Part shown: positions 19,706 through 37,090 of the stretch, piece after piece
How the letters are laid out: each line of letters opens with the position of its first letter
Numbering within the stretch: position 1 is the first letter of the stretch
Assembly (NCBI GenBank): GCA_051531975.1
Contig: JAOPTT010000019.1
Coordinates: 1 to 38,873, forward strand
Source of the DNA: Spirochaetaceae bacterium
Lineage (GTDB): Bacteria; Spirochaetota; Spirochaetia; DSM-2461
DNA: 38,873 nucleotides
Reading direction: 5' to 3'
Notes under the pieces: model-generated
What the model was told of the DNA's origin: nothing
Databases searched by the model: none
What the model saw: the letters and a program-made list of their open reading frames with translations, nothing else
Translations under genes and position numbers: made by a program

Positions 19706-20830
19706 ATGAAAAAATACTACTTTTTAACTATTTTATTATTAATTTCAGGGTATTTATTTGCCCAATCCACATATACTGGGAATTTATCTTTTTCTGAAGA
19801 TTCTTTCTTTGATGATAAAGACAACTCCGATAGTTATTATGCTGGAGGTTGCAACGCTTTTCCTATTGGAACCTTTATAAAAGTAGATCTTCCTTTCTCT
19901 GATGATTTTGTTAATGTAAAAATTGTTAGTAAAATTCCTGAAGATGGAACATTTGTTGTAGTTGATAATAGGGCAGCAGCTAGACTGAATCTGGATAAAG
20001 AGGATGTATTACCTGTTAAAGTACAGGTGATTAATTTTATACCTCTTCCATTAGAGGAGTTAGATAGTCTAGAAGAGTTGGATCCAGAACCAGAAATAAA
20101 AGGATTAACTGCTAAGCATGTAGAATCTGAAGATCCTGTAATTGTAGAGGAACCTGTAGTTGTAGAGGAACCTGTAGTTGTAGAGGAACCTGTAGTTGTA
20201 GAGGAACCTGTAGTTGTAGAGGAACCTGTAGTTGTAGAGGAACCTGTAGTTGTAGAGGAACCTGTAGTTGTAGAGGAACCAGTAGTTGTAGAGGAACCAG
20301 TAGTTGTAGAGGAACCAGTAATTGTAGAAGAACCAATAATTGTAGAAGAACCAATAATTGTAGAAGAACCAGTTATATATGAAGATGAAATCCCTGATGA
20401 ATCTATGTTTACTAAAGAAACTGAATTTGAAACTTTAACTCCAGTTGAAAAAGAGCCGGTCGTTACCGAAAAGACGCCAACAAAAAGAATATTCTTCTTA
20501 GAACCTGCAAATACTAAACCACCTAGTGGTGGAACTCCTGATATAAAATATGTACCTGTAACAAAAGTTGAAGAAAGTAAAGAATTTAAAGATGGTTATT
20601 ATCTTCAAGTAGGACTTTATAACATCAATCAAAAAGCTTTAGACTCTATAAAAATATTAGACGCACTTAACTTTCCTAACCTTTTAGTAAAAGAAGAATC
20701 ATCAACTAAAAGAGATATTTTATTAGTTGGACCACTTAAAAATGACGAACTAGGTGTTATTATGTTGCACCTAAAAAGTAGAGGTTTTGAAGATTTCTTT
20801 AGATATCAGAAGAAAACAGTTAATAAATAA
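19706..20830 (+). CDS. Exported protein: RlpA/DPBB-like N-terminal domain, EEPVVV repeat linker, C-terminal SPOR-like domain
   Basis: Signal peptide (YLFA-Q). FPIGTFIKV...AAARLNL resembles a double-psi barrel. C-terminal YYLQVGLY...LVGPL is SPOR-like. Confidence 0.7.
   Translation: MKKYYFLTILLLISGYLFAQSTYTGNLSFSEDSFFDDKDNSDSYYAGGCNAFPIGTFIKVDLPFSDDFVNVKIVSKIPEDGTFVVVDNRAAARLNLDKEDVLPVKVQVINFIPLPLEELDSLEELDPEPEIKGLTAKHVESEDPVIVEEPVVVEEPVVVEEPVVVEEPVVVEEPVVVEEPVVVEEPVVVEEPVVVEEPVVVEEPVIVEEPIIVEEPIIVEEPVIYEDEIPDESMFTKETEFETLTPVEKEPVVTEKTPTKRIFFLEPANTKPPSGGTPDIKYVPVTKVEESKEFKDGYYLQVGLYNINQKALDSIKILDALNFPNLLVKEESSTKRDILLVGPLKNDELGVIMLHLKSRGFEDFFRYQKKTVNK
20129..20380 (+). repeat. In-frame 18-bp tandem repeat, 14 units (EEPVVV)
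   Basis: GAGGAACCTGTAGTTGTA x7 identical (20147-20272), two CCA variants, then progressively diverged units. Confidence 0.97.
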
Positions 20831-20865
20831 TTGCCTAATGTAGTTAATCGTGATAAAAAAAACAC

Positions 20866-22071
20866 ATGGCTACATTTTTTTTGTTTTTTATAGTATTTGC
20901 AATATTTCTAATTATTATGTTTCTCTACTTCAATAGTGGTACATCTTTAGGTGGTGCTGAGTTTGTAGCTAAAGGTCGAGAAGCAGGTCTTAACCCACAA
21001 GTTATTAAAATGTTAAAAAAAACCGCTAGTATTATTAATCTAGATAAACCATTAACTCTTCTAGGTTCTATAACCCATATAGATCGTGCAATAACAGATA
21101 TTAACCTGATTTTAGAAAAAGAAGATTACAGAAATCCAGAACTTAGAGATTTACTGGAAGAACTTTATAGTTATAGAAAAAATATCGAATTAGAAAAAAG
21201 AGAAAGAAGAGCAACAATCACAACTTCTAGAGATATCAACTTAGAGCAACATATGAAAATAACAGTAGGGAATATAGAAACCCCTCTATTAGGTGTTGTC
21301 ATAGATAATACAACTAATTATCTAACAATTGAGTTATTAAAAGATACAAACGTAAAACCAGGAATAAATTGGGATGGTCCTATAAATCTATATTTTTGGA
21401 AAAAAGAAGATGCCGGATATTATTTCGAATCGGTAGTATCAGATACTAAAACTAATAGAGTATGGAATGTTATTCATTCGAATAATTTGATCAGAAGCCA
21501 AAAAAGAGAAGAGATAAGAGTTGATACAGATATTAATAGTTATGTTTATAAATTAGATGATATTTCTAAACGAGATGCTAAGCATGAAGGTTTTGTTGGT
21601 ATCTTCTCCCAACTTAAAAATATATCCGAAGGTGGAGCTGCATTTTTAATGAATGGAAAACTAGAGAGGGGTGTAGCTTTAAAAATAGAATTTAAATTAA
21701 AAAATAAAATTATTGTTATATGTGGGACTGTAAAAAGTAGCTCATTTAATAAGTCAAATAAAATCTCCTTGGTTAGAATTGAATTTGTTGAACCAAAATT
21801 TGAGATGTTAGCAGCATTAAGATCATTTATATATAATACAACTTCTATTCCAAAACTACCTAAAGAGATCAATAACACGATTAATCTTACTAAAGCTGTT
21901 GAAAATCTGGAAGAAATGGACAACAATACAAAAAAGGAAGATGCTGAAATTGAGGCTAAAGATGTTGACGCTACTGAGGTTGAAGAAATATCTGAGGTTG
22001 AAGAAATATCTGAGGTTGAAGAAATATCTGAGGTTGAATATCTTCCTGATAATAACAATGTTATGAATTAA
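20866..22071 (+). CDS. Membrane-anchored PilZ-domain (c-di-GMP receptor, flagellar-brake-like) protein
   Basis: N-terminal TM, YcgR-N-like middle region, RSQKREEIR (RxxxR) and NISEGG (D/NxSxxG). Confidence 0.85.
   Translation: MATFFLFFIVFAIFLIIMFLYFNSGTSLGGAEFVAKGREAGLNPQVIKMLKKTASIINLDKPLTLLGSITHIDRAITDINLILEKEDYRNPELRDLLEELYSYRKNIELEKRERRATITTSRDINLEQHMKITVGNIETPLLGVVIDNTTNYLTIELLKDTNVKPGINWDGPINLYFWKKEDAGYYFESVVSDTKTNRVWNVIHSNNLIRSQKREEIRVDTDINSYVYKLDDISKRDAKHEGFVGIFSQLKNISEGGAAFLMNGKLERGVALKIEFKLKNKIIVICGTVKSSSFNKSNKISLVRIEFVEPKFEMLAALRSFIYNTTSIPKLPKEINNTINLTKAVENLEEMDNNTKKEDAEIEAKDVDATEVEEISEVEEISEVEEISEVEYLPDNNNVMN
21974..22038 (+). repeat. In-frame 18-bp tandem repeat, about 3.6 units (EVEEIS)
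   Basis: CTGAGGTTGAAGAAATAT x3 plus a partial copy. Confidence 0.95.
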
Positions 22072-22097
22072 AATTATAAAATAAGAGAGGATTTAAA

Positions 22098-22988
22098 ATG
22101 AGATTGATTAAAGGACTAATGTCTGTTTTTTTATTATCTGTAATATTTTCATGTGCAACAACTGAAAATACAGTTGCAGTTGAAGTCGCAACTAAAGATG
22201 AAAGTCCAGAGTTAAAAAGCTCTGAACCAATATTAGTAGAGAAAGAAGTTACAGAAAGCGCATATTTTGTTACAAAAGAACAAGCTTTTTATGGGGATGG
22301 ACAAATTGATTCTGTTATTAGTTATACATTTAATGAGAACTTTGAACTATTAAGTAGAATACAGACTAACGAACAAGAAGAAGTTTTAGAATCTTTTAAA
22401 AATACAATAGAAAATGGTTTAATTATAAAACAAGAAAATTATGGTTTTGGGAATGTTTTAAACACATACTCTGAGTTTGTTTATAATGGGAATGGAGAGT
22501 TGATCAGAGAAACTTTATTTGACGACGAGAAAAAAATTCAATCTATTAACGAATATGAATATAAAACTGGAAACCTTATGGTTTGGAAAACTTTAGGTTC
22601 AAATGGTGGTGTCTTAGCTTTAACTGAGTATCTTTATGATAACAATAATAACAATGTTAAAGTTGAAATGAAGACCGCTGGTGGTTCTATTGATGGAGTT
22701 ATCGAAAAGAGTTATGAAAACAATTTTATATCTGAAGAGAAAATTTTAGATAACAAAGGTAATGTAGAGAAATCTATACAATATGTTTATAAAAATGAAC
22801 TTTCTACTGAGAAGATTTATTTTGATTCAAAGGGTCAAATGAAGCGAAGTGAAACATTTGAGTATGAAGGATCAAATCCATATCCAATAAGAATAAATTA
22901 CAACTACAAAAGTGGAGCACTTGATGCGTATACTTTAGTTGAATACGATACTAAAACAATCACCAAAACAATTTGGGTTGAGGAGTAA
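22098..22988 (+). CDS. Lipoprotein with YD-like beta-hairpin repeats
   Basis: Lipobox VIFSC. Recurrent Y-x-Y-(D/N)-x-x-G-type units. Confidence 0.75.
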   Translation: MRLIKGLMSVFLLSVIFSCATTENTVAVEVATKDESPELKSSEPILVEKEVTESAYFVTKEQAFYGDGQIDSVISYTFNENFELLSRIQTNEQEEVLESFKNTIENGLIIKQENYGFGNVLNTYSEFVYNGNGELIRETLFDDEKKIQSINEYEYKTGNLMVWKTLGSNGGVLALTEYLYDNNNNNVKVEMKTAGGSIDGVIEKSYENNFISEEKILDNKGNVEKSIQYVYKNELSTEKIYFDSKGQMKRSETFEYEGSNPYPIRINYNYKSGALDAYTLVEYDTKTITKTIWVEE

Positions 22989-22990
22989 AA

Positions 22991-24172
22991 ATGAAAAAAT
23001 ATAGAATCCTCTGTCTTTTATTATTGACAATAACATTTCAATCTTTTGCAGGAGATCGATCAGAAGTTTGGTCTCGAATGTACAAAAGAAGTATTTCCCC
23101 TGACTTAAAATACTCTGTAATGCTAAATATAGTTGAGTTAAACGATAGAGGAATGATTCCACTATTAGAAGAGATTCTCTCTGAAGATATTATTGCAAAA
23201 CTAAGTACTAAACGTGGTGTTACAGAAGAGAAGAAATTTGTAGATCTTACTACTTTAGTTATAAAAGAGTTAGGTGAACTAAAATCAAAAAGTTCAGCAC
23301 CACTTATATATAATATTTTAGTAGAGGCCACTGATCCTCTACTAAAAGCAGATGCTATTATTGCTTTAGGGAATATGAGAGCAACAGCTTATTTAAGTGA
23401 AATTGCATTTATATTAAAAAATATAAATCTGAAACCTACTGAAGGTTCTTACTCTGTTGTAGAAGCAGAGTCAAAAGTTGCTTATGCATGTATTGCTGCC
23501 TTAGATAGATTTAGAGATATTGAAGGTTATTCTCCAGTGTTTTTTGCTTCAGTTGGCTGGTACGATCAGAGAATCAGATTTTTTTCTGATAAAGTTCTTA
23601 AAACTATTGTAGAAAATCCAATTGATGCCTTAATTCCTATAATTTCTAATGGATCGTTTAAAGATAAAGTGAAAGCTATAAATGAAGTTGCAGTTTGTAA
23701 AGCACCTTCTGAAGATAAGGCAAGAGCTGCAAGAGAAGCGATGAAACAAGGTTTAGATAATGTTTTTGATACTATCCAGGAAGGCATGACATTAACAACA
23801 TTAAGAAAAAATGCAATTAAAGTATTATATGCAAGTAAATCTTCTAGTGTTGATGATGTTTATTATTTATCTCAATCTATTAAAAAAGGTTCAGATTTAG
23901 CTGAAAAGATTTACGCCATAAAAACTTTAGGTGTAAATGGAAGTGACGAAGCCTTAGAAGCATTAGCTTCAGTTTTATCAGAGTATAACGAAAGAAGTGT
24001 TAGTGGAATTGATATAAGTTACGCTGAAGAAGATATTATTAAAGAGTTAATAGTTACACTTGGTAGTACTGGTAGCGATATCGCAAGTAGTATAATAACC
24101 GAGGTGCAATTTTCTAGTTATTCTACTGGAATTGTCAGAACTGCTAAAGCCACATTAAAAAATATGAAGTAA
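22991..24172 (+). CDS. Exported HEAT-repeat protein
   Basis: Signal peptide (SFA). HEAT-like units ELGELK, AIIALGNMRA, AIKTLG, LIVTLG. Confidence 0.75.
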   Translation: MKKYRILCLLLLTITFQSFAGDRSEVWSRMYKRSISPDLKYSVMLNIVELNDRGMIPLLEEILSEDIIAKLSTKRGVTEEKKFVDLTTLVIKELGELKSKSSAPLIYNILVEATDPLLKADAIIALGNMRATAYLSEIAFILKNINLKPTEGSYSVVEAESKVAYACIAALDRFRDIEGYSPVFFASVGWYDQRIRFFSDKVLKTIVENPIDALIPIISNGSFKDKVKAINEVAVCKAPSEDKARAAREAMKQGLDNVFDTIQEGMTLTTLRKNAIKVLYASKSSSVDDVYYLSQSIKKGSDLAEKIYAIKTLGVNGSDEALEALASVLSEYNERSVSGIDISYAEEDIIKELIVTLGSTGSDIASSIITEVQFSSYSTGIVRTAKATLKNMK

Positions 24173-29256: not shown

Positions 29257-30000
29257 ATGACAGTTGGAATATATGGATTAGGAAGATTTGGAGCTTTTTG
29301 GGGGGATGCCCTTTCAAAGGTTGTTACAGTAAAAGGTTATAGTCGTAATACTAGTAGGTTTTGTCCACCATCAATACAGAGAGTTTCTGAAACTGAAGTT
29401 CTTAGTTGTGATGTAGTTATTATTTGTGTCGCTATATCAGCAATGGAACCTTTTTTATTAAATATAAAAGAGAAAGTTAAGCCGGGAACTTTGATAATGG
29501 ATACCTGTTCTGTTAAAGTTCACCCTGTAAAACTTATGCTGGATTTATTACCTGACAGTGTCGATATTATTGGTACACACCCAATGTTTGGGCCAGACTC
29601 TGGAAAAAATGGTGTTGCTGGGTTGCCCATCGTTATTTCTAAAGTTAGAACTAGTGGCGATAAATATAGGATTTGGGTTGATCTATTTAACCAGATGAAT
29701 CTGTCTGTAATAGAACTGACACCTGAAGAACACGATAAAGAAGCCGCATATACCCAGGGTATTACCCATTTTATTGGTAGAACTTTATCTGACTTACATT
29801 TAAAAGGTAGCTCAATATCTACAACAGGGTATAATAGCTTATTAGAAATAATAAAGCAGACATGTAACGATGAATATCAACTATTCCTCGATTTACAAAA
29901 ATATAATCCGTATACAGCAGACATGCGGAATGATTTAAAACATTCATTGCATAAAGTTTTAGGTGTTATTGAAGCAGAAACTACAGAAGGAGATATATAA
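29257..30000 (+). CDS. tyrA: Monofunctional prephenate/arogenate dehydrogenase
   Basis: GLGRFG Rossmann motif, DTCSVK, HPMFGP, EEHD, QGITH. Confidence 0.88.
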   Translation: MTVGIYGLGRFGAFWGDALSKVVTVKGYSRNTSRFCPPSIQRVSETEVLSCDVVIICVAISAMEPFLLNIKEKVKPGTLIMDTCSVKVHPVKLMLDLLPDSVDIIGTHPMFGPDSGKNGVAGLPIVISKVRTSGDKYRIWVDLFNQMNLSVIELTPEEHDKEAAYTQGITHFIGRTLSDLHLKGSSISTTGYNSLLEIIKQTCNDEYQLFLDLQKYNPYTADMRNDLKHSLHKVLGVIEAETTEGDI

Positions 30001-30001
30001 T

Positions 30002-30361
30002 ATGGCAGAGATACATTCCCAAAGAGTTCGAGAAAGGGAACTAGATACAGTTATGGGATTAGATATTGATTTTGCAGGATCCCTATCTTTTAGTGATCCA
30101 TTAATGATAAAAGGTAAATTAAAAGGTGATATTAATGCGACCGGTGTTTTATATATAGAAGCCACAGCTACCGTTCAAGCGAATATTAGTGCTGCAAGTG
30201 TACAAATTCGTGGTGAAGTCATTGGTGATATAAATGCAACAAAAAGTGTCCAGCTTTTTTCAAGCGCTAAAGTAACAGGGGATATTGTTGCTCCAAAAGT
30301 GAAAATGGAAAATGGGTGTTTTTTTAGTGGAAAGTGTCAAATGACTGGTAAGGTAGAGTAA
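30002..30361 (+). CDS. Bactofilin (polymer-forming cytoskeletal protein)
   Basis: Beta-helix pattern (IKGKLKGDI, GEVIGDINA, VTGDIVAP, GCFFSGKC). ATG 30002 preferred because of the AGGAGA RBS. Confidence 0.9.
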   Translation: MAEIHSQRVRERELDTVMGLDIDFAGSLSFSDPLMIKGKLKGDINATGVLYIEATATVQANISAASVQIRGEVIGDINATKSVQLFSSAKVTGDIVAPKVKMENGCFFSGKCQMTGKVE

Positions 30362-31008
30362 TGAATCGAAATGCAATTAGATTTTTTCTACTTTTAATTA
30401 TATTTAGCACAAGTTTATCTCTATTTTCACAAAAAGATAAAGACGCTCTTAAGTTATGGAGAGATGGTAATTTTAAAGAGGCTGCAGATGTCTGCTTTGA
30501 AGAGTTAGAAAATTTACCAAAGGCTAGTTTTGCCCAAAGAATGGATTCATACACAGTATTGTGTTGGTCCTTATTAAGTTTAAAGAGATACGACGATGTT
30601 ATTATCTATGGAAAAGAAGCTTATGATCAATCTACTCGAAATTGGCGATTTGTCGCAGCTTTAGGTGAGGCACATTACCATTTAGGAAATAATAGGGAAT
30701 CACTTTATTTCTTAGAGAAGTATATTGAATTAAAAAGTTCAGGTGATAAAGCCGGATATATGTATTACCTGATGGGCCATGTTTTTTTAAGATTAGAAGA
30801 GTATTATAGAGCCGATGTTGCACTGTCTATGGCTGTATATTTAAAACCTTTAGATGCCGGATGGTGGTCACGTTTAGGGTATGCAAGAGAGCAGGCTAAA
30901 GACTACCAAAGAGCCAAAGATGCATACAATAAAGCACTCTCAATTAACTCTTCATTAGTAGATGCAGACAGAGGAATGAAAAGAGTTCACAAATCTTTAG
31001 GATTATGA
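30361..31008 (+). CDS. Exported TPR protein
   Basis: Signal peptide. TPR units (ALGEAHYHLG, LMGHVFLRL, RLGYAREQ). Confidence 0.85.
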   Translation: MNRNAIRFFLLLIIFSTSLSLFSQKDKDALKLWRDGNFKEAADVCFEELENLPKASFAQRMDSYTVLCWSLLSLKRYDDVIIYGKEAYDQSTRNWRFVAALGEAHYHLGNNRESLYFLEKYIELKSSGDKAGYMYYLMGHVFLRLEEYYRADVALSMAVYLKPLDAGWWSRLGYAREQAKDYQRAKDAYNKALSINSSLVDADRGMKRVHKSLGL

Positions 31009-31009
31009 T

Positions 31010-31038
31010 TTGTGTATTACCGCCAACTGGCTTATAAT
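31010..31038 (+). promoter_or_regulatory. Sigma70-like promoter of the lipoprotein/barrel operon
   Basis: TTGTGT-N17-TATAAT. AAGGAG RBS at 31063-31068. Confidence 0.6.
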
Positions 31039-31074: not shown

Positions 31075-32019
31075 GTGAAGTATATAATAAAACAATTCTT
31101 TCTACTTTTTTTAGTAATTTCTATTATGTCCTGTGATGTAGTATCCGAATTTTTAACAACTAATTATTTTGATGACTTAAGTGATACCGATGAGACAGAT
31201 ATAGATATAGATGAAAACTCAGTTTGGATTAGTATTTCTGACGCTGATAAACTTACTAAGATAGATGAATATACTAGTTATGCATTATCAGAAGATTTTT
31301 CAGGTCAATTATTCCAGAGTTTAAAAACTAATGAGACATATAAAAATGGTGTTTCAGATTATTATAGGCAACTTCTAGTTGATCAACCTATTCGAATGTA
31401 TATTTCAGATGATGGATATGACGATTATATAGATGATTTAGCTATTTACCAAAATCGTGCATTAGCATTAGCTAAAATTGAAGCCTACACTACTGATAAA
31501 TTAATGATTGCAGGTTTTAATGAACTTCTAATCGATTATTCATCTGGTATAAGAGAAGGTGTATTAAATCATAAATTAATTTTTTCTGAAATGTTTAGTG
31601 TTCCAGATACTCTTTGGGCAACTGATGGTGATGATGCGGATACTGTTAATAGTGAGTTATCTAGTTTTAAAAGAGCAGGTAGTGCACTTTCTTTATTAGG
31701 TGAAACTATAACAGACAGGGATAATCCTTTAATTGACTCCGTAACAGAGGATGATGCTATATTCATTTTATTAGCCTGTATGGTTAATAACGTGATAGAA
31801 GAAACTATGACAGATTCTTCAACTACTGAAACTGTTAGTTTACAATCTTTAACATCTCAGACAGTTACACGAGACACTACAGATGCTATTATACAATTTC
31901 CTGAAGATATAACTGGTGGGACAACTTTAGAGAATTATTTAGGTGCAGATGGTGCTTTATTATATGCTGCTTCAGGGTATGAATTACCAGAAATATCAAT
32001 ATTTGGAGGTAACTTATAA
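31075..32019 (+). CDS. Acidic lipoprotein A
   Basis: GTG start with RBS, lipobox SIMSC, very D/E-rich, predicted mostly helical. Confidence 0.8.
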   Translation: MKYIIKQFFLLFLVISIMSCDVVSEFLTTNYFDDLSDTDETDIDIDENSVWISISDADKLTKIDEYTSYALSEDFSGQLFQSLKTNETYKNGVSDYYRQLLVDQPIRMYISDDGYDDYIDDLAIYQNRALALAKIEAYTTDKLMIAGFNELLIDYSSGIREGVLNHKLIFSEMFSVPDTLWATDGDDADTVNSELSSFKRAGSALSLLGETITDRDNPLIDSVTEDDAIFILLACMVNNVIEETMTDSSTTETVSLQSLTSQTVTRDTTDAIIQFPEDITGGTTLENYLGADGALLYAASGYELPEISIFGGNL

Positions 32020-33275
32020 TGAAGAAAATTATATTAATGGTTTTATTTAGCCTTATGGCATCTCTTATCTGGAGTGCTGATACTTATATAGAAAACAATT
32101 TCTCATTTTTTAGCCCAAAAGTTTTAGCTCTTGGTAATTCATTTGTTGCCGAAGCCCATGGACTAGAGTCTTTTGAATTTAATCCTGCGGGTTTAGTTGA
32201 GGATCGAGAAATTACAATATTTAGTGGAACAAATAATCTTCTTTCTAATGTTTTTCAGTTATCTGAAGATCTACTAGACGCATATAATGAGGATAATGAT
32301 ACTAGTGTAGAAAATATTGGGCTTGAAGAGTTATCTTTTATATTAGAACCTGAGAATAGAGAAGCAATTATTAAAGCGTTGCTGAATCAGGCAAGTAAAC
32401 CCTACGAAGATGGAGCTTATGCCAATGGTTTAGGTTATTCACCTGTTTTATCATTAGGTTTTGCTGGTGATGGACTTGGAATTGGTCTACTAATTAATAT
32501 GGATTCAGAAGTTTTTGGAAATGAACTTCATACTACTGAGTTAGATAGTGTTATTACAACATCACTACTTTTAGGTTATGCAATGACTATTCCATTAGGA
32601 ATTGTTGATATTGATGTAGGAGTTGGAGCAAGACCAATGTATAAAATTCGGGTATCATCCGAACTACCTCCAGTAATAGATCTATTATTAAGCGATTCTC
32701 TTTTGTCAGATAATGATGAAACATACCAAGAGATGGAATATTTAACTGGTATAGGATTTGGTTGGGATCTTGGTACAAAGGTTCACTTTAAAGATTTAAC
32801 AGTTGGATTGTCATTAATTGATATGTTTGGAACAAATATGACATATAATTATAATACATACGATGATATTGTTGCTGGTGACTTTTTAGGATCAGAGAGT
32901 GCTACAGATGAGTATATAACACCTATGAGTGTTAAATTAGGGTTCTCATATAATCCAACTCTTGGATCAATGAATTCTATATTTAATCCTACACTTTCTG
33001 CAGACTATAAGTTTCTTTTTGTTGATGGTGACTCTGTGGAAGATTATGTAGATCAAAGTGAAGTTTGGAACAATTTATCCATTGGACTAGATATAGAGTT
33101 ATTTAAATTTATTAATGCTCGAGCTGGTATAAACCAGGGTTACATCACTCTTGGAACAGGTATTAAACTTCTATTTATGGAAATTAATGCAGCTGTTTAT
33201 TCAAAAGAGATTGGTGATAGCGTTGGAGATAGGCAGCAAATGGGGGCAGCTATTGAGTTTGCAATTAGATTTTAG
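32019..33275 (+). CDS. Outer-membrane beta-barrel A (FadL/TraF-like superfamily)
   Basis: Signal peptide, ALGNSFVA...NPAGL (FadL-type NPA hatch motif), amphipathic strands, C-terminal EFAIRF. Confidence 0.75.
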   Translation: MKKIILMVLFSLMASLIWSADTYIENNFSFFSPKVLALGNSFVAEAHGLESFEFNPAGLVEDREITIFSGTNNLLSNVFQLSEDLLDAYNEDNDTSVENIGLEELSFILEPENREAIIKALLNQASKPYEDGAYANGLGYSPVLSLGFAGDGLGIGLLINMDSEVFGNELHTTELDSVITTSLLLGYAMTIPLGIVDIDVGVGARPMYKIRVSSELPPVIDLLLSDSLLSDNDETYQEMEYLTGIGFGWDLGTKVHFKDLTVGLSLIDMFGTNMTYNYNTYDDIVAGDFLGSESATDEYITPMSVKLGFSYNPTLGSMNSIFNPTLSADYKFLFVDGDSVEDYVDQSEVWNNLSIGLDIELFKFINARAGINQGYITLGTGIKLLFMEINAAVYSKEIGDSVGDRQQMGAAIEFAIRF

Positions 33276-33978
33276 AAAAATTAAGCTAATTAACAAAAAG
33301 CTTGTTTTTATAGTTATGATTGTAACCTTTTTATATTCATGTACAGATATCTTTACCTCAAATCTTTTTTCAGAGTTAAGTACTGATTATTCAGATATGT
33401 CGGAAGACCAATTACAGAGTAATTTAGCAAGTGATGGTTTCCCAACAGATCCTGACGAATTACAAGATGTTGAAGACCTTTTAGTTGAGTTTAGATCAGA
33501 ATTAACAGATGACATTTTAAATGACCCAGACTTATTAGAACAATATGTTGAAGATACTACCCAACTATTAGATCTTAACCTTCAGCAGGCTGATGTAGAA
33601 GGTCTTATGGCTGACCTAATGGGAGCCTCAGATGGTGGTGGTGATTTATTATCTGGTCTAGAAGATGATGTTGAAAGATTAGAAAACCTTGCAGATGCTG
33701 GTGATTATGCAGTTGAAGCATTTGAATTAGACCCAGATAGTTTATCTACAACTCAGCTAGTTGTAGGTGGTGTAGGCCTTATATCTGATATTTTACAAGA
33801 TGATACACTTGCAGCAGCATTAGAGGACTCTCCGACGACAGAGACGGCGGATCTAGTAGCTGCAGGTTTTGATGCACAGCAAATATCCGATATTCAAACT
33901 GCTAGTGCTATGATGGATGCTGCAGAAGCTGGAGCAGAAGGCGACATAGCTGACTTATTAGAAGGATTACCATTTTGA
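33253..33978 (+). CDS. Extremely acidic lipoprotein B; start uncertain (TTG 33253/33259 or ATT 33280/33289)
   Basis: NKKLVFIVMIVTFLYSC signal/lipobox with Cys at 33340. Mature part has no Lys. Confidence 0.75.
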   Translation: MSLQLDFRKIKLINKKLVFIVMIVTFLYSCTDIFTSNLFSELSTDYSDMSEDQLQSNLASDGFPTDPDELQDVEDLLVEFRSELTDDILNDPDLLEQYVEDTTQLLDLNLQQADVEGLMADLMGASDGGGDLLSGLEDDVERLENLADAGDYAVEAFELDPDSLSTTQLVVGGVGLISDILQDDTLAAALEDSPTTETADLVAAGFDAQQISDIQTASAMMDAAEAGAEGDIADLLEGLPF

Positions 33979-35123
33979 GATTAATAGCAATTATACTTAT
34001 CTTAGTTCCCGCAACACTATTTTCCATTAATAACCAAGTAGATAATACCTCTATATACAATATGGCTATGGGAGGCCCTCATTCTGGTATGGCTAAGGGT
34101 TTTGGTACATTCTATAATAATCCAGCCTTGTTAGCTGAATATGATACAGAACTTAATTTTTTTGAGATAGGAGTTAATTTAAAAGGTGATGCATTAGATA
34201 TTGCTAACCTGTATCTAGGGGACTCTCTTACCTTAGATGACCCTGCAGCACTAATTACAACCCTACAAGATGAGAGTCTAACTAGTTTGCTAATTGGTGT
34301 TGATATACCAGGACCAATTTTTGTTGGTAGAATAAATAATAATTGGGGTTGGGCAGTAAAAAACATAACATCGTTAAATGTTGATGTCCCTGGACTGTTA
34401 TTAGATTCTAATATAATTGCCAGAGAAGATTTAATGTTTGCTATTGGTATAGCTTTCCCATTTGATTTTAAGTTAGGTGAATCTTTTAATTTAGGTTTTA
34501 CTCCAGGGGTTATGTCTCGTTCTACTATCCGAGCAGAGGTTGAAGTAGATAGTGATCTCCTAGGTATTTTAAGTTACATGGATGATTTTGCATCTATCCT
34601 CGATACTTACCCATTAACTATAAGTCCTATATTTGCACTGGATTTTGGATTTACACTGAATTTTAACAATATAATTTCTTTATCAGGTGTTGTTAAAGAT
34701 GTTTATACTCCCATTTTAAAGTACCCAGTAGCAGATATTGATGATGCAATGGATATATTTACCACAACAACCGAAACAACGGGTAATACAATCGAAAGAG
34801 AGATAAACTTTGGTTTAGCATCTGATATACCTTTAGGGCCCATAGAGCTTATTGTCAGCGATCTAGATATATATTTAGATTATTTTGATCTATTAGATTT
34901 TGATACAAATTTTTGGCTGCATTGGGGAATTGGAACAGATATTGAGTTGCTGAATAAATTTCACCTCTTAGCAGGATTAAACGAAGGATTATTGTCTTTA
35001 GGTGTAAATATTGATATAAGTGGATTAGAAGTAGGTTTTGCAATGTATGGAACTGAAGAAGGTTTAGAGCCAGGTGTAGCAAGTACATTTAACTTTCTAT
35101 TTAGTCTAAAAATTTCTTTTTAG
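33975..35123 (+). CDS. Outer-membrane beta-barrel B (FadL/TraF-like), paralog of barrel A
   Basis: TTG start overlapping the previous stop, MAMGG...NNPALL, AGLNEG...YGTEEG, C-terminal SLKISF. Confidence 0.75.
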   Translation: MRLIAIILILVPATLFSINNQVDNTSIYNMAMGGPHSGMAKGFGTFYNNPALLAEYDTELNFFEIGVNLKGDALDIANLYLGDSLTLDDPAALITTLQDESLTSLLIGVDIPGPIFVGRINNNWGWAVKNITSLNVDVPGLLLDSNIIAREDLMFAIGIAFPFDFKLGESFNLGFTPGVMSRSTIRAEVEVDSDLLGILSYMDDFASILDTYPLTISPIFALDFGFTLNFNNIISLSGVVKDVYTPILKYPVADIDDAMDIFTTTTETTGNTIEREINFGLASDIPLGPIELIVSDLDIYLDYFDLLDFDTNFWLHWGIGTDIELLNKFHLLAGLNEGLLSLGVNIDISGLEVGFAMYGTEEGLEPGVASTFNFLFSLKISF

Positions 35124-35129
35124 ATTATG

Positions 35130-35158
35130 TTGACTCTTTTTAGGTAAGTCTATATATT
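35130..35158 (+). promoter_or_regulatory. Sigma70 promoter of the tRNA cluster
   Basis: TTGACT-N17-TATATT, ending 15 nt before the first tRNA. Confidence 0.75.
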
Positions 35159-35173: not shown

Positions 35174-35246
35174 GGGCCGTTAGCTCAGTAGGTAGAGCAA
35201 CGCCCTTTTAAGGCGTGGGTCGTTGGTTCGAATCCAACACGGCTCA
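35174..35246 (+). tRNA. tRNA-Lys(TTT), copy 1
   Basis: Acceptor GGGCCGT/ACGGCTC, anticodon arm ACGCC-CTTTTAA-GGCGT, TTCGAAT T-loop. CCA not encoded. Confidence 0.97.
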
Positions 35247-35315
35247 ATAAGGAAGAATTACGATTCTTCCCTGGGAAGATGATTTATCTTTCTTTTGAAG
35301 TTTACTTCAAGATAT

Positions 35316-35387
35316 GTCTTGTTCGTCTAGGGGTTAGGACACATGGTTTTCATCCATGCAACAGGGGTTCGATTCCCCTACGAGATG
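35316..35387 (+). tRNA. tRNA-Glu(TTC), copy 1
   Basis: Acceptor GTCTTGT/ACGAGAT, anticodon arm CATGG-TTTTCAT-CCATG, TTCGATT T-loop. Confidence 0.96.
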
Positions 35388-35431
35388 TTTATTGCTTTAT
35401 TATTTAAAGCAAAAATTGTTTAGCCAAGGGC

Positions 35432-35460
35432 TTTACAAAACACAACGCTTTTATTATTAT
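35432..35460 (+). promoter_or_regulatory. Internal sigma70-like promoter before tRNA unit 2
   Basis: TTTACA-N17-TATTAT, in a segment present only between units 1 and 2. Confidence 0.6.
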
Positions 35461-35480
35461 TCAAGCGTAATTTAGTACTT

Positions 35481-35553
35481 GGGCCGTTAGCTCAGTAGGT
35501 AGAGCAACGCCCTTTTAAGGCGTGGGTCGTTGGTTCGAATCCAACACGGCTCA
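35481..35553 (+). tRNA. tRNA-Lys(TTT), copy 2
   Basis: Identical to copy 1. Confidence 0.97.
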
Positions 35554-35619
35554 ATAAGGAAGAATTGTAATTCTTCCTCGAGAAGAGTTTACTCTTTTTT
35601 TGGTTTTATCCAAGTACAA

Positions 35620-35691
35620 GTCTTGTTCGTCTAGGGGTTAGGACACATGGTTTTCATCCATGCAACAGGGGTTCGATTCCCCTACGAGATG
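35620..35691 (+). tRNA. tRNA-Glu(TTC), copy 2
   Basis: Identical to copy 1. Confidence 0.96.
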
Positions 35692-35728
35692 TAAAATGCT
35701 TTATTTTATTAAAGCGAAATTATGACCC

Positions 35729-35801
35729 GGGCCGTTAGCTCAGTAGGTAGAGCAACGCCCTTTTAAGGCGTGGGTCGTTGGTTCGAATCCAACACGGCTC
35801 A
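35729..35801 (+). tRNA. tRNA-Lys(TTT), copy 3
   Basis: Identical to copy 1. Confidence 0.97.
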
Positions 35802-35870
35802 ATAAGGAAGAATTACAATTCTTCCCCGGGAAGATTATTTAATCTTCTTTTGAAGTTTACTTCAAAGTAA

Positions 35871-35942
35871 GTCTTGTTCGTCTAGGGGTTAGGACACATG
35901 GTTTTCATCCATGCAACAGGGGTTCGATTCCCCTACGAGATG
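35871..35942 (+). tRNA. tRNA-Glu(TTC), copy 3
   Basis: Identical to copy 1. Confidence 0.96.
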
Positions 35943-35945
35943 TTT

Positions 35946-35979
35946 AAAAGCAGATAATTTAATTATCTGCTTTTTTTTT
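35946..35979 (+). terminator. Intrinsic terminator of the tRNA cluster
   Basis: GCAGATAAT-TTA-ATTATCTGC followed by T9. Confidence 0.92.
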
Positions 35980-36025: not shown

Positions 36026-37090
36026 ATGTCCAATAAAATTATTTTAAAAGCAGATGCGTTAGATGGGTTTCTTACAGATCAAGATCAAGTTTATTTAGAT
36101 GAAATGAGTAGTTTATATGATGAAGCTATGGAATGTTATAGTGTCTTAGAGATAAATGACTCCACTTCTGCTATTTATTTAGATACTAAAGATAAAATTG
36201 TTAAGCTCTATCAAGAGATGGGTGAGTTGATGAAGACTATATCATCAAAAGAAGAAAATCTAAAAATATATGCATTCGAGACACATCAAACTAAACATGG
36301 AGAGGCATCAAGGCTTATCGCTAAATTAAGAGATGAAAAAACAGGTCATGAAGAGTTTGTATATTATATTCAAAGAGCTTTTGAGTTACTGTTTAATCTC
36401 GTTTATAGCGAAGAGAGTGGATCTAAAAACTATTTAGTTGTTAAGACTCCTGTTACTCATCCTGTACAGAATTTCGCAGTACACAAAATTCCAGATGTTG
36501 ATAATGTTATAGGTAATACAGTTATGTGTGTAATGTTAAGGGGTGCACTGTTGCCTTCAATGATAATGAGTAAAGAGATTCAGGAATATTCATCTACAGG
36601 TTATGTAACACCATTTGCTCTGTTTAAGATAAAAAGAGATGACTCTAAAAATGAAACTGATATGGAATATTTACTAGATTTAGATAAATCATATTTTAAT
36701 ATTGATGAGATGCAAGATAAAGATCTTATTTTTGCTGATCCTATGAATGCTACCGGTGGTAGTATGGTTACTGTTGTAAAATATCTATTAGATAGTGGTG
36801 TAAAGCCACGATCAATTAAATTTATAAATGTCGTTTCGAGTTTAAAAGGGGCATTACAGATATTAAGGGCGTTGGATAATATTACATGTTATACATTATG
36901 GATGGATCCAGTATTAAACGATAAGGCTTATATTATGCCTGGTTTAGGTGATGCTGGTGATAGACTTAATGGTGAAGACGAAGATATGTATCCAAGAAAT
37001 ATGATTCAGCTAGTTGCTGATTATGGCTCAAATATTTCAGCTTTATATAGGTCTCAGGTTAGGAAAATTGAAAAAACAATCCTGGGGTAA
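36026..37090 (+). CDS. upp: Uracil phosphoribosyltransferase, long form
   Basis: LRD, MLRGAL, PRPP loop ADPMNATGGS, uracil pocket YIMPGLGDAGDR. N-terminal extension. Confidence 0.9.
   Translation: MSNKIILKADALDGFLTDQDQVYLDEMSSLYDEAMECYSVLEINDSTSAIYLDTKDKIVKLYQEMGELMKTISSKEENLKIYAFETHQTKHGEASRLIAKLRDEKTGHEEFVYYIQRAFELLFNLVYSEESGSKNYLVVKTPVTHPVQNFAVHKIPDVDNVIGNTVMCVMLRGALLPSMIMSKEIQEYSSTGYVTPFALFKIKRDDSKNETDMEYLLDLDKSYFNIDEMQDKDLIFADPMNATGGSMVTVVKYLLDSGVKPRSIKFINVVSSLKGALQILRALDNITCYTLWMDPVLNDKAYIMPGLGDAGDRLNGEDEDMYPRNMIQLVADYGSNISALYRSQVRKIEKTILG

Follow-up and report, generated by a model that had tools for sequence, protein, structure and literature searches.

Duplicated lipoprotein-barrel gene pairs in Spirochaetota: a candidate outer-membrane system with a probably surface-docked lipoprotein

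The window analysed here, a stretch of 38,873 nucleotides (contig JAOPTT010000019.1 of the Spirochaetaceae assembly GCA_051531975.1), contains four adjacent genes that alternate between lipoproteins and barrel-like proteins, and raises the question of whether each barrel has a lipoprotein partner and, if so, what the two do together. An earlier note, made from the sequence alone, had proposed a duplicated two-partner outer-membrane system in which the lipoprotein is either a lid for import or cargo displayed on the cell surface.

The locus and the predicted barrel fold

The features of the unit are as follows:

31010-31038, + strand: putative promoter-like TTGTGT-17 nt-TATAAT, read by eye
31075-32019, + strand: lipA (lipoprotein A), GTG start, 314 aa, signal II, Cys20 at 31132, predicted all-helical body
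31132-31170, + strand: lipA tether CDVVSEFLTTNYF
32019-33275, + strand: barA (barrel A), 418 aa, predicted outer-membrane barrel of FadL fold, with 14 strands and an N-terminal hatch
32181-32189, + strand: barA hatch NPA motif
32250-32396, + strand: helical and acidic loop 1 of barA, on the cell exterior by barrel topology
33198-33236, + strand: barA loop 7 YSKEIGDSVGDRQ (E397-x5-G403), putative lipoprotein docking motif
33259-33978, start uncertain, + strand: lipB (lipoprotein B), Cys at 33340, tether CTDIFTSNLF, very acidic body
33975-35123, + strand: barB (barrel B), TTG start, 382 aa, paralogue of barA
34119-34127, + strand: barB hatch NPA motif
35046-35084, + strand: barB loop 7 YGTEEGLEPGVAS (E361-x5-G367), putative docking motif

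The ORF calls bore out all four same-strand genes in the proposed order, with overlaps of 1 nt between lipA and barA and 4 nt between lipB and barB. The ATG of lipB at 33316 would leave only 8 residues before the Cys, which makes the TTG at 33259 or the ATT codons at 33280 and 33289 likelier starts. The proposed single promoter fared less clearly: the promoter scan listed none in the 66-bp gap, and the site seen by eye misses the -35 rule of that scan. No terminator was found between the unit and the upstream tyrA-bactofilin-TPR genes. RNA from one metatranscriptome of the same sample yields 8 short contigs across a span of 14.9 kb, of which one lies in lipA (covering 31493-31918), and neither co-transcription nor expression level follows from it. 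The unit's neighbours are housekeeping genes (tyrA, bactofilin, mtaB and tRNAs), with ddl-ftsQ-ftsA-like genes taking this place elsewhere. The acidity remarked upon earlier extends to all four proteins, which fall within the most acidic 1.5% of the genome's 2954 long ORFs.

The AlphaFold2 model of barA (pLDDT 95.7) has 14 strands and the FadL/PorV/TraF_2-type fold that had been proposed. Its structural comparisons (VIA) gave CymD (Z 25.5, rmsd 3.1, 277 aligned), PorV (Z 23.8, rmsd 4.3, 275 aligned), FadL (Z 22.5, rmsd 3.5, 279 aligned) and BamG (Z 21.1, rmsd 5.1, 297 aligned), and from residues 3-10 onward the model aligns with the FadL and PorV hatches. Strand 3 is unbroken in the predicted secondary structure and strand 2 is broken at a Pro. 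On the strength of this model barA can be confidently predicted to be a 14-stranded barrel of the FadL/PorV/BamG type with an NPA hatch. BarB is its full-length paralogue (profile-profile 99.4% over 361 columns) and is assigned to the same fold by this profile homology; single-sequence BLAST recovered only the C-terminal block (E 1e-7). The two barrels share the motifs LALG/MAMG...NPA, AG[IL]N[QE]G and Y..E.G...G and the terminal Phe, the last of which is kept in just 70 of 228 relatives and is hence not universal. The hatch NPA Asn, by contrast in its reach, was kept in 214/214 classified relatives. In the barA model, strand 1 is likewise followed by the helical insert (mature residues 59-107), whose length is 62 residues in barA against 38 in barB.

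Sequence-based family assignments are much fainter. Pfam and NCBIfam searches with all four proteins gave nothing above cut-off; below it, Toluene_X scored 13.9 bits with barB (cut-off 29.7) and had no match in barA, and PorV_fam matched weakly (27.2 bits against a cut-off of 90). PDB sequence searches with single barrels returned no credible relative, and the best PDB match of the family profile was the BamG of P. gingivalis, at a weak E of 0.008. TraF_2 was matched by 20/23 close relatives at E<=0.1, and at E<=0.001 TraF_2 (PF13729) and DUF5723 (PF18990) were matched by 24/125 and 6/125 barrels respectively, UniRef labelling relatives as 'DUF5723 domain-containing'. The window's own barA and barB match neither; the functional content of these labels is only nominal, and no conjugation genes were seen near the spirochaete barrels.

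Linkage of lipoprotein and barrel

A neighbourhood survey across Spirochaetota placed a lipobox gene directly upstream of 107/137 barrel ORFs, mostly with gaps of -26 to +45 nt, as the proposed pairing predicts. Barrel matches were found in 158/401 genomes of the phylum and 104/161 of the class. In the latter set, by a comparison of lists made by hand, a barrel adjoins 30/32 lipA and 49/53 lipB matches, the remaining 6 lying at contig ends in genomes that have a barrel; none of the 85 lipA and lipB matches falls in the 57 class genomes lacking a barrel match. The A/B duplication is ancient and recurs across the class Spirochaetia, and A-A and B-B pairing is supported by the sorting of the A and B types and by contrasts within loci. 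No further paralogues were detected in the window's own genome by tblastn.

The distribution is patchy. The genes were not found in several of the families searched, nor was the family found in the small genomes of 1.0-1.5 Mb that were searched; the 125-barrel profile had no match in five genomes (G102, G124, G173, G190 and G145), in a search that ran without a positive control. Pattern scans, which are insensitive, recovered 4 loci in genome contigs and none in metagenomes.

The partner lipoproteins are united chiefly by their N-termini. A tether of the form Cys-x-(N/T/S)-hydrophobic-F is present in 96/107 of them, against 2/67 other lipoproteins at these loci and 8/301 lipobox ORFs of the window's genome. 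Clear acidity is found in 82/107, hence is not universal, and at least two acidic residues after the Cys, the surface signal of Bacteroidota, occur in only 10/107. LipB is remotely similar to lipA (89%, E 2e-6). The lipA model is all-helical (pLDDT 83) and has no family or fold match: Foldseek gave nothing at E<=0.001, its top match being TatT TP0956 at E 0.41, and the best VIA Z of 5.7 is not meaningful for a helical protein, with BamH not among the matches listed. The ESM Atlas held no usable match for either lipoprotein, and the lipB profile drew only weak helical noise from the PDB.

Outer loops and loss of the lipoprotein gene

The loop-7 motif E-x5-G is present in 100/103 barrels with a lipoprotein gene and 0/19 without, counts that are partly circular because the motifs were read from these training loci. 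Under a rule fixed beforehand, a held-out set gave 56/62 with the gene and 6/30 without it. The exceptions are thus 6 barrels that have a lipobox gene and lack the motif, and 6 that keep the motif without such a gene; a later search found a lipA at one of them (L177), and L171, L179 and L186 remain real-looking exceptions. Where lipA is missing and lipB-barB is present, barA lacks the motif and barB retains it, at 6 training loci and at the held-out loci L188, L195, L198, L202, L209, L210 and L214. Cap-less barrels make up 49/214 of those classified, with 15 state changes, and preserve the core (NPA Asn in 49/49, G182 in 46/49); without the lipoprotein, relaxation affects outer loops 7 and 5 together with strand 13 and spares the periplasmic turn that was tested. 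Since loop 7 degenerates in barrels whose lipoprotein gene has gone, this loop is the likely docking site. A tree-based test (FastTree, motif columns removed) yielded about 7 supported independent pairs, of which about 5 agreed with the contrast, none ran against it and 2 showed no change, for a median sign-test p of 0.0625.

Long loop inserts fall in cap-less barrels (5/5 in one set, 10/11 in another), tracing to only about 2 events. The idea that such inserts are fused lipoproteins was rejected, there being no sequence similarity and scores like those of reversed controls.

A probable surface-docked lipoprotein and its alternatives

The reading that we favour, at a probability of roughly 0.55, is that the locus encodes two anciently duplicated pairs, each comprising a predicted hatch-plugged, 14-stranded FadL-fold barrel and a helical lipoprotein that would dock cognately upon it as a surface cap. 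The barrel would be inserted by BAM, and the lipoprotein would reach the surface by a general route, with its lipidated Cys in the outer leaflet. The tether could then bind the face made up of loops 7, 5 and 6 and the start of loop 1, near the last strands, and the acidic helical body may sit over the barrel as a cap with a structural or protective role at the surface, which is the least tested step. Since the barrel survives without the cap, it is probably an anchor with its own role; two cap-less lineages instead carry a large helical insertion within one of the outer loops. An insensitive search for LptD_2 in the window's genome found no match, and so lends the general export route no support there.

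The earlier note had likened the pairs to SusC/SusD and Slam-type systems. SusC/SusD is built on a 22-stranded TonB-dependent barrel, and such a barrel is ruled out by the 14 strands and approximately 400 aa of the present ones; these comparisons stand as analogies only. The lipid-trapping PopA superfamily, with 16 strands (PMC12228718), was rejected on the same count. BamG-BamH, from the BAM complex of Bacteroidota, offers a closer precedent: BamG, a 14-stranded barrel of the FadL family, docks the lipidated tail of the lipoprotein BamH, a conserved N-terminal segment being implicated, and BamG2-BamH2 form a putative operon as the spirochaete pairs do, according to the available parts of two reports (PMC12611786, PMC12578637). 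By analogy, the spirochaete lipoprotein likely docks on its barrel in a comparable manner on another face, in that BamH is described as sitting on a pillar of strands 3-7.

With FadL, TodX, TbuX and CymD the spirochaete barrels share the fold (Z 22-25.5), the N-terminal hatch and an NPA similarly spaced from the mature N-terminus, its Asn being mature residue 36 in barA and 32 in barB, near N33 of FadL. Unlike these channels, to which they are 12-17% identical with Toluene_X far below cut-off, they have a helical loop 1, a family-specific loop-7 motif and a linked lipoprotein. PorV likewise shares the fold (Z 23.8) and holds a protein partner; it is described as a shuttle for T9SS substrates, whereas the spirochaete partner is a single adjacent lipoprotein with an N-terminal tether. 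The FadL-like proteins of T. pallidum (TP0548, TP0856, TP0858, TP0859 and TP0865) are reported as 14-stranded with an NPA/NAA hatch, some of them in one operon and three with a C-terminal helical bundle, and the available part of that report mentions no partner lipoprotein (PMC8407342); the profile's lack of a match in G102 concerns a 1.1 Mb genome of the treponemal family.

A minor but real chance remains with import, under which the docking is the same, the barrel passes a hydrophobic solute like FadL, TodX or CymD, and the lipoprotein serves as a lid that catches the substrate. The best fold matches are transporters, cap-less barrels too keep the hatch NPA without exception, and an accessory lid could be as dispensable as the lipoprotein is. 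However, no catabolic or acyl-CoA genes were seen among the housekeeping neighbours, searches of the most reduced genomes, in which one would expect scavenging, did not find the family, and lipA matched no pocket-bearing fold. Of the two roles first offered for the lipoprotein, the lid keeps some plausibility, and barrel-driven export is not supported.

Export enters two further readings. That the tether is a code read by the cognate loop 7 of a FadL-fold barrel which both exports and holds the lipoprotein, with the cap rebuilt as a loop insert and the system phylum-wide, strikes us as rather unlikely. That each barrel is a dedicated, Slam-like translocon, recognising the tether and moving its one lipoprotein to the surface, we consider improbable. 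The strict one-way dependence, lipoproteins never being seen without a barrel, would suit it, as would one-to-one pairing with a conserved N-terminal signal and the missing LptD_2 match. Against it, the hatch is predicted to occupy the lumen, many lineages retain cap-less barrels whose core is intact, and the decaying sites lie on the outside rather than the periplasmic side. SlipAM (PF04575) had no match among 125 barrels or in the window's genome, in a search whose control was also without a match. A dedicated exporter role is less likely than cognate docking. Nor is the hoped-for bearing on spirochaete export supported: because the family was not found in the small genomes searched, it probably leaves the Borrelia surface-export question unsolved, for which an LptD route has already been reported and is elsewhere described as challenged.

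A role for the pair as an accessory in outer-membrane biogenesis, as the spirochaete equivalent of BamG-BamH and bound to BamA or another machine, is quite improbable. The profile match to BamG, vertical inheritance at a conserved site and the TPR-like partner lipoproteins of other Spirochaetota lineages speak for it. Yet the N-terminal extension of about 10-12 residues by which BamG is described as contacting BamA is absent from the spirochaete barrels (residue 34 of B. thetaiotaomicron BamG, whose extension spans 23-37, aligns with residue 4 of the barA model), the implicated docking face is another one, the all-helical lipA departs from the carbohydrate-binding fold given for BamH, and the genes were not found in several families, BamG being described as essential and universal in its phylum. 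That the genes are merely co-inherited neighbours whose products do not touch is hardly credible: shared descent alone would produce the A/B sorting and the tree-based test stays above 0.05, but the outer loops decay site-specifically upon lipoprotein loss, A and B contrast within loci, and pairing is kept in unrelated gene contexts.

Docking of the lipoprotein on the barrel, if borne out, would extend FadL-fold barrels as docks for surface lipoproteins beyond the BamG-BamH of Bacteroidota, via a different face. We found no description of this barrel-lipoprotein family in the literature, subscription papers and supplements (such as T. denticola proteomics tables) aside; a large unannotated spirochaete outer-membrane family gains a predicted fold, a candidate partner and a testable interface of two loop-7 residues and a tether of about 10 residues. 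Related barrel-lipoprotein pairs are present in other Spirochaetota lineages. Separately, 3283 library representatives match the barrel family at E<=0.001.

Organization of the four-gene unit

The gene order claimed by the earlier note, lipoprotein A - barrel A - lipoprotein B - barrel B, is present in the window and its coordinates were confirmed:

31075-32019, + strand, lipA, ORF with lipobox IMS-C
32019-33275, + strand, barA, ORF
33259 (probable TTG start, or an ATT) to 33978, + strand, lipB, ORF with lipobox LYS-C
33975-35123, + strand, barB, ORF

We favor the TTG or an ATT as the probable lipB start because ATG 33316 gives no usable signal peptide; normal 15-18-residue signals are seen in five of six close relatives. 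The single promoter proposed ahead of the unit is plausible, in that TTGTGT-17-TATAAT is visible by eye upstream, but it is absent from the calls of a promoter scan. The acidity of all four proteins lies at the 98.5th-99.8th percentile among the 2954 ORFs of this genome, and their nearest named relatives are hypothetical proteins from Thiospirochaeta perfilievii and other Spirochaetales.

The unit is flanked by tyrA, bactofilin and TPR genes on one side and six tRNA genes on the other. The bactofilin and signal-peptide TPR genes (29963-31008) likewise precede it in many loci of the class Spirochaetia, where an mtaB-like gene often intervenes. Directly past barB, three tandem tRNA-Lys(TTT)/tRNA-Glu(TTC) pairs (35174-35942) are preceded by a separate promoter-like site (35130-35158) and followed by a terminator-like hairpin (35946-35974). 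Conserved 3' of the unit is a 354-aa uracil phosphoribosyltransferase-like protein (36026-37090) with an N-terminal extension of ~85 residues. Ahead of comEC, four unannotated genes on one strand (19706-24172) encode a match-less signal-peptide protein, a PilZ-domain membrane protein, a lipoprotein and an exported HEAT-repeat protein.

Structure and ancestry of the barrels and lipoproteins

Searches with barA and barB against curated families yielded none above the cut-off, and relatives of the barrels showed weak TraF_2 matches (20/23 at E<=0.1; 24/125 at E<=0.001). The AlphaFold2 model of barA (135 sequences; pLDDT 95.7, pTM 0.92) is a 14-stranded barrel with an N-terminal hatch, the plug bearing the NPA motif, and a helical loop 1. 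Its top structural matches are CymD (Z 25.5), PorV (23.8), TodX, TbuX and FadL (22-23) and BamG (21), with CymA (19) and OmpG (18) as the next class, which bears out the suggestion of a FadL/PorV/TraF-like barrel. While the fold was modeled for barA alone, the barB profile aligns full-length to the barA family at 99.4%. The barrels belong to the FadL structural superfamily, and are not FadL, PorV or BamG proper. In a FastTree phylogeny of 131 barrels the barA-like and barB-like clades (support 0.99 and 1.0, respectively) are separate and deep, and barrels from more distant Spirochaetota branch outside both, pointing to an old duplication that is not peculiar to this genome.

The lipA model (21 sequences; pLDDT 83) has an all-helical body, which gave no significant match to known folds, and a low-confidence N-terminal tether following the lipidated Cys. 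A remote relationship links the lipA and lipB families, extending over the tether and the initial helices (89%, E 2e-6). Profiles stripped of the tether pull in lipoproteins preceding A barrels when built from lipA and those preceding B barrels when built from lipB, with one B-clade neighbor (L039) and some reversed decoys entering in late rounds. A tether motif was derived from the same sequences in which it was then counted: either N-hydrophobic-F/Y or F-T-x-S/N, no more than 16 residues from the Cys. It occurs in 96/107 partner lipoproteins versus 2/67 of the other lipoproteins encoded at the partners' loci (of these two, one is a genuine lipB at the end of a contig), and in 8/301 lipobox ORFs of this genome as background. 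A weak TPR match lies at the start of the partner lipoprotein in 9 of 27 scanned from distant lineages. Some partners (L145, L193, L194, L222-L224, L038, L069) reach 400-650 residues, far above the usual length.

Distribution and linkage

Barrel matches were recovered in 158/401 genomes of the phylum at E<=0.001, the weakest of which may be other FadL-like proteins, and in 104/161 genomes of the class at E<=1e-12. None were found in families f20 (0/75) and f25 (0/38) in the phylum survey, or in f5 (0/7), f6 (0/8), f10 (0/6) and f64 (0/6) in the class survey. Across Spirochaetota, 107 of 137 barrel ORFs, including fragments and taken from a chosen part of the listed matches, have a lipobox gene immediately upstream, in several unrelated gene contexts. 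The complete unit is found again, at a matching chromosomal site, in loci such as L002, L036, L037, L116, L118, L122, L127, L131 and L133-L135. A lipoprotein-side search of the same 161 class genomes gave 32 lipA and 53 lipB matches, each single; by hand comparison of positions, 30 and 49 of these, respectively, adjoin a barrel and the remaining two and four are at contig ends, while the 57 class genomes lacking a barrel match yielded neither. The dependence is one-way: barrels also stand alone, lipoproteins do not. The earlier note's claim of cognate pairing, A with A and B with B, is supported.

Barrel B of L116 (G401:C1:2979169-2980312, a complete genome) is broken into three frames beside an intact lipB, reflecting either a sequencing error or a pseudogene. 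In L141 (G406:C1:2210690-2212472) a truncated lipB precedes a fragmentary barrel B, the pair apparently decaying jointly. In the distant lineages L049, L050, L052 and L053 the pair adjoins ddl-ftsQ-ftsA-like genes, recognized by eye, and anti-sigma-factor-like genes.

Lipoprotein loss and the outer face of the barrel

We compared 19 barrels preceded by a non-lipoprotein gene with 58 paired A/B-clade barrels; 9 cases at edges or missed were excluded. The unpaired barrels are less conserved in loop 7, loop 5, strand 13 and the opening residues of loop 1, with no such drop in the periplasmic turn that was tested or in the hatch taken as a whole. A loop-7 rule (Glu at mature position 378 and Gly at 384) is satisfied by 100/103 paired versus 0/19 unpaired barrels of the training loci. 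The rule was fixed before being applied to new loci, some of them related to the training set. These gave 97 complete barrels, of which 5 lying at edges were left out; the motif is intact in 56/62 with a lipobox gene and not intact in 24/30 without. Among the misses, L177 has a lipA overlooked by the lipobox filter, the lipobox calls at L192 and L227 are apparently false, and alignment artefacts seem to account for L206 and L213; this leaves L171, L179, L186 and several others as exceptions. Core residues persist in the 49 unpaired barrels (NPA Asn 49/49, G20 46/49, G182 46/49). Where lipA is lost and lipB-barB kept, barA decays and barB does not, which argues for cognate-specific pairing. In a tree from which the motif columns had been excluded, the lipoprotein state shows 15 or more changes, with only 7 pairs on supported branches: about 5 concordant, none opposite and 2 unchanged (median p 0.0625). 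The signal is strong by counts and suggestive, but not proven, by independent events.

Even-stranded barrels have both termini in the periplasm, so loops 1, 5, 6 and 7 would point out of the cell. On the simplest reading, the tether docks on this outer face and the helical body rests on the cell surface. The precedent is BamG-BamH, for which two reports (PMC12611786, PMC12578637) describe a FadL-family barrel with a groove in which a surface lipoprotein's lipidated tail is held; that groove lies on strands 3-7, whereas loops 1/5/6/7 are implicated here. Our literature searches found no account of the present family; the portions available of a T. pallidum FadL paper (PMC8407342), a Brachyspira preprint and a PopA paper (PMC12228718, sections 10-11) concern other proteins. 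We rate the pair as a widespread and undescribed variant of the barrel-plus-surface-lipoprotein theme, one that offers a precise, testable candidate interface for a putative docking interaction.

An import role with the lipoprotein as a lid is possible, but no catabolic genes were seen among the neighbors, and searches of 1.0-1.5 Mb genomes, presumably host-dependent, did not recover the family. Less likely is a dedicated exporter carrying each lipoprotein to the surface: it fits the one-way dependence, but the lumen is predicted to be plugged, the decaying sites are on the outside and barrels without cargo survive long. An LptD-type route for lipoprotein export is reported for Borrelia and, in a source that also notes a challenge to the Borrelia result, for Bacteroidota; an insensitive search found no LptD in this genome.

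Outer loops of at least 80 residues are almost confined to unpaired barrels (5/5 in one set, 10/11 in another) and trace to about two events. In the library representatives, 1/14 long versus 111/138 normal-length proteins carry the loop-7 pattern. The inserts bear no sequence resemblance to the lipoproteins. In lipoprotein-less barrels (L044, L045, L123, L196, L202, L203, L205-L207, L210; L104, L105) they span 114-178 residues in loop 1 or 83-124 in loop 2, and the three loop-1 inserts measured are very acidic.
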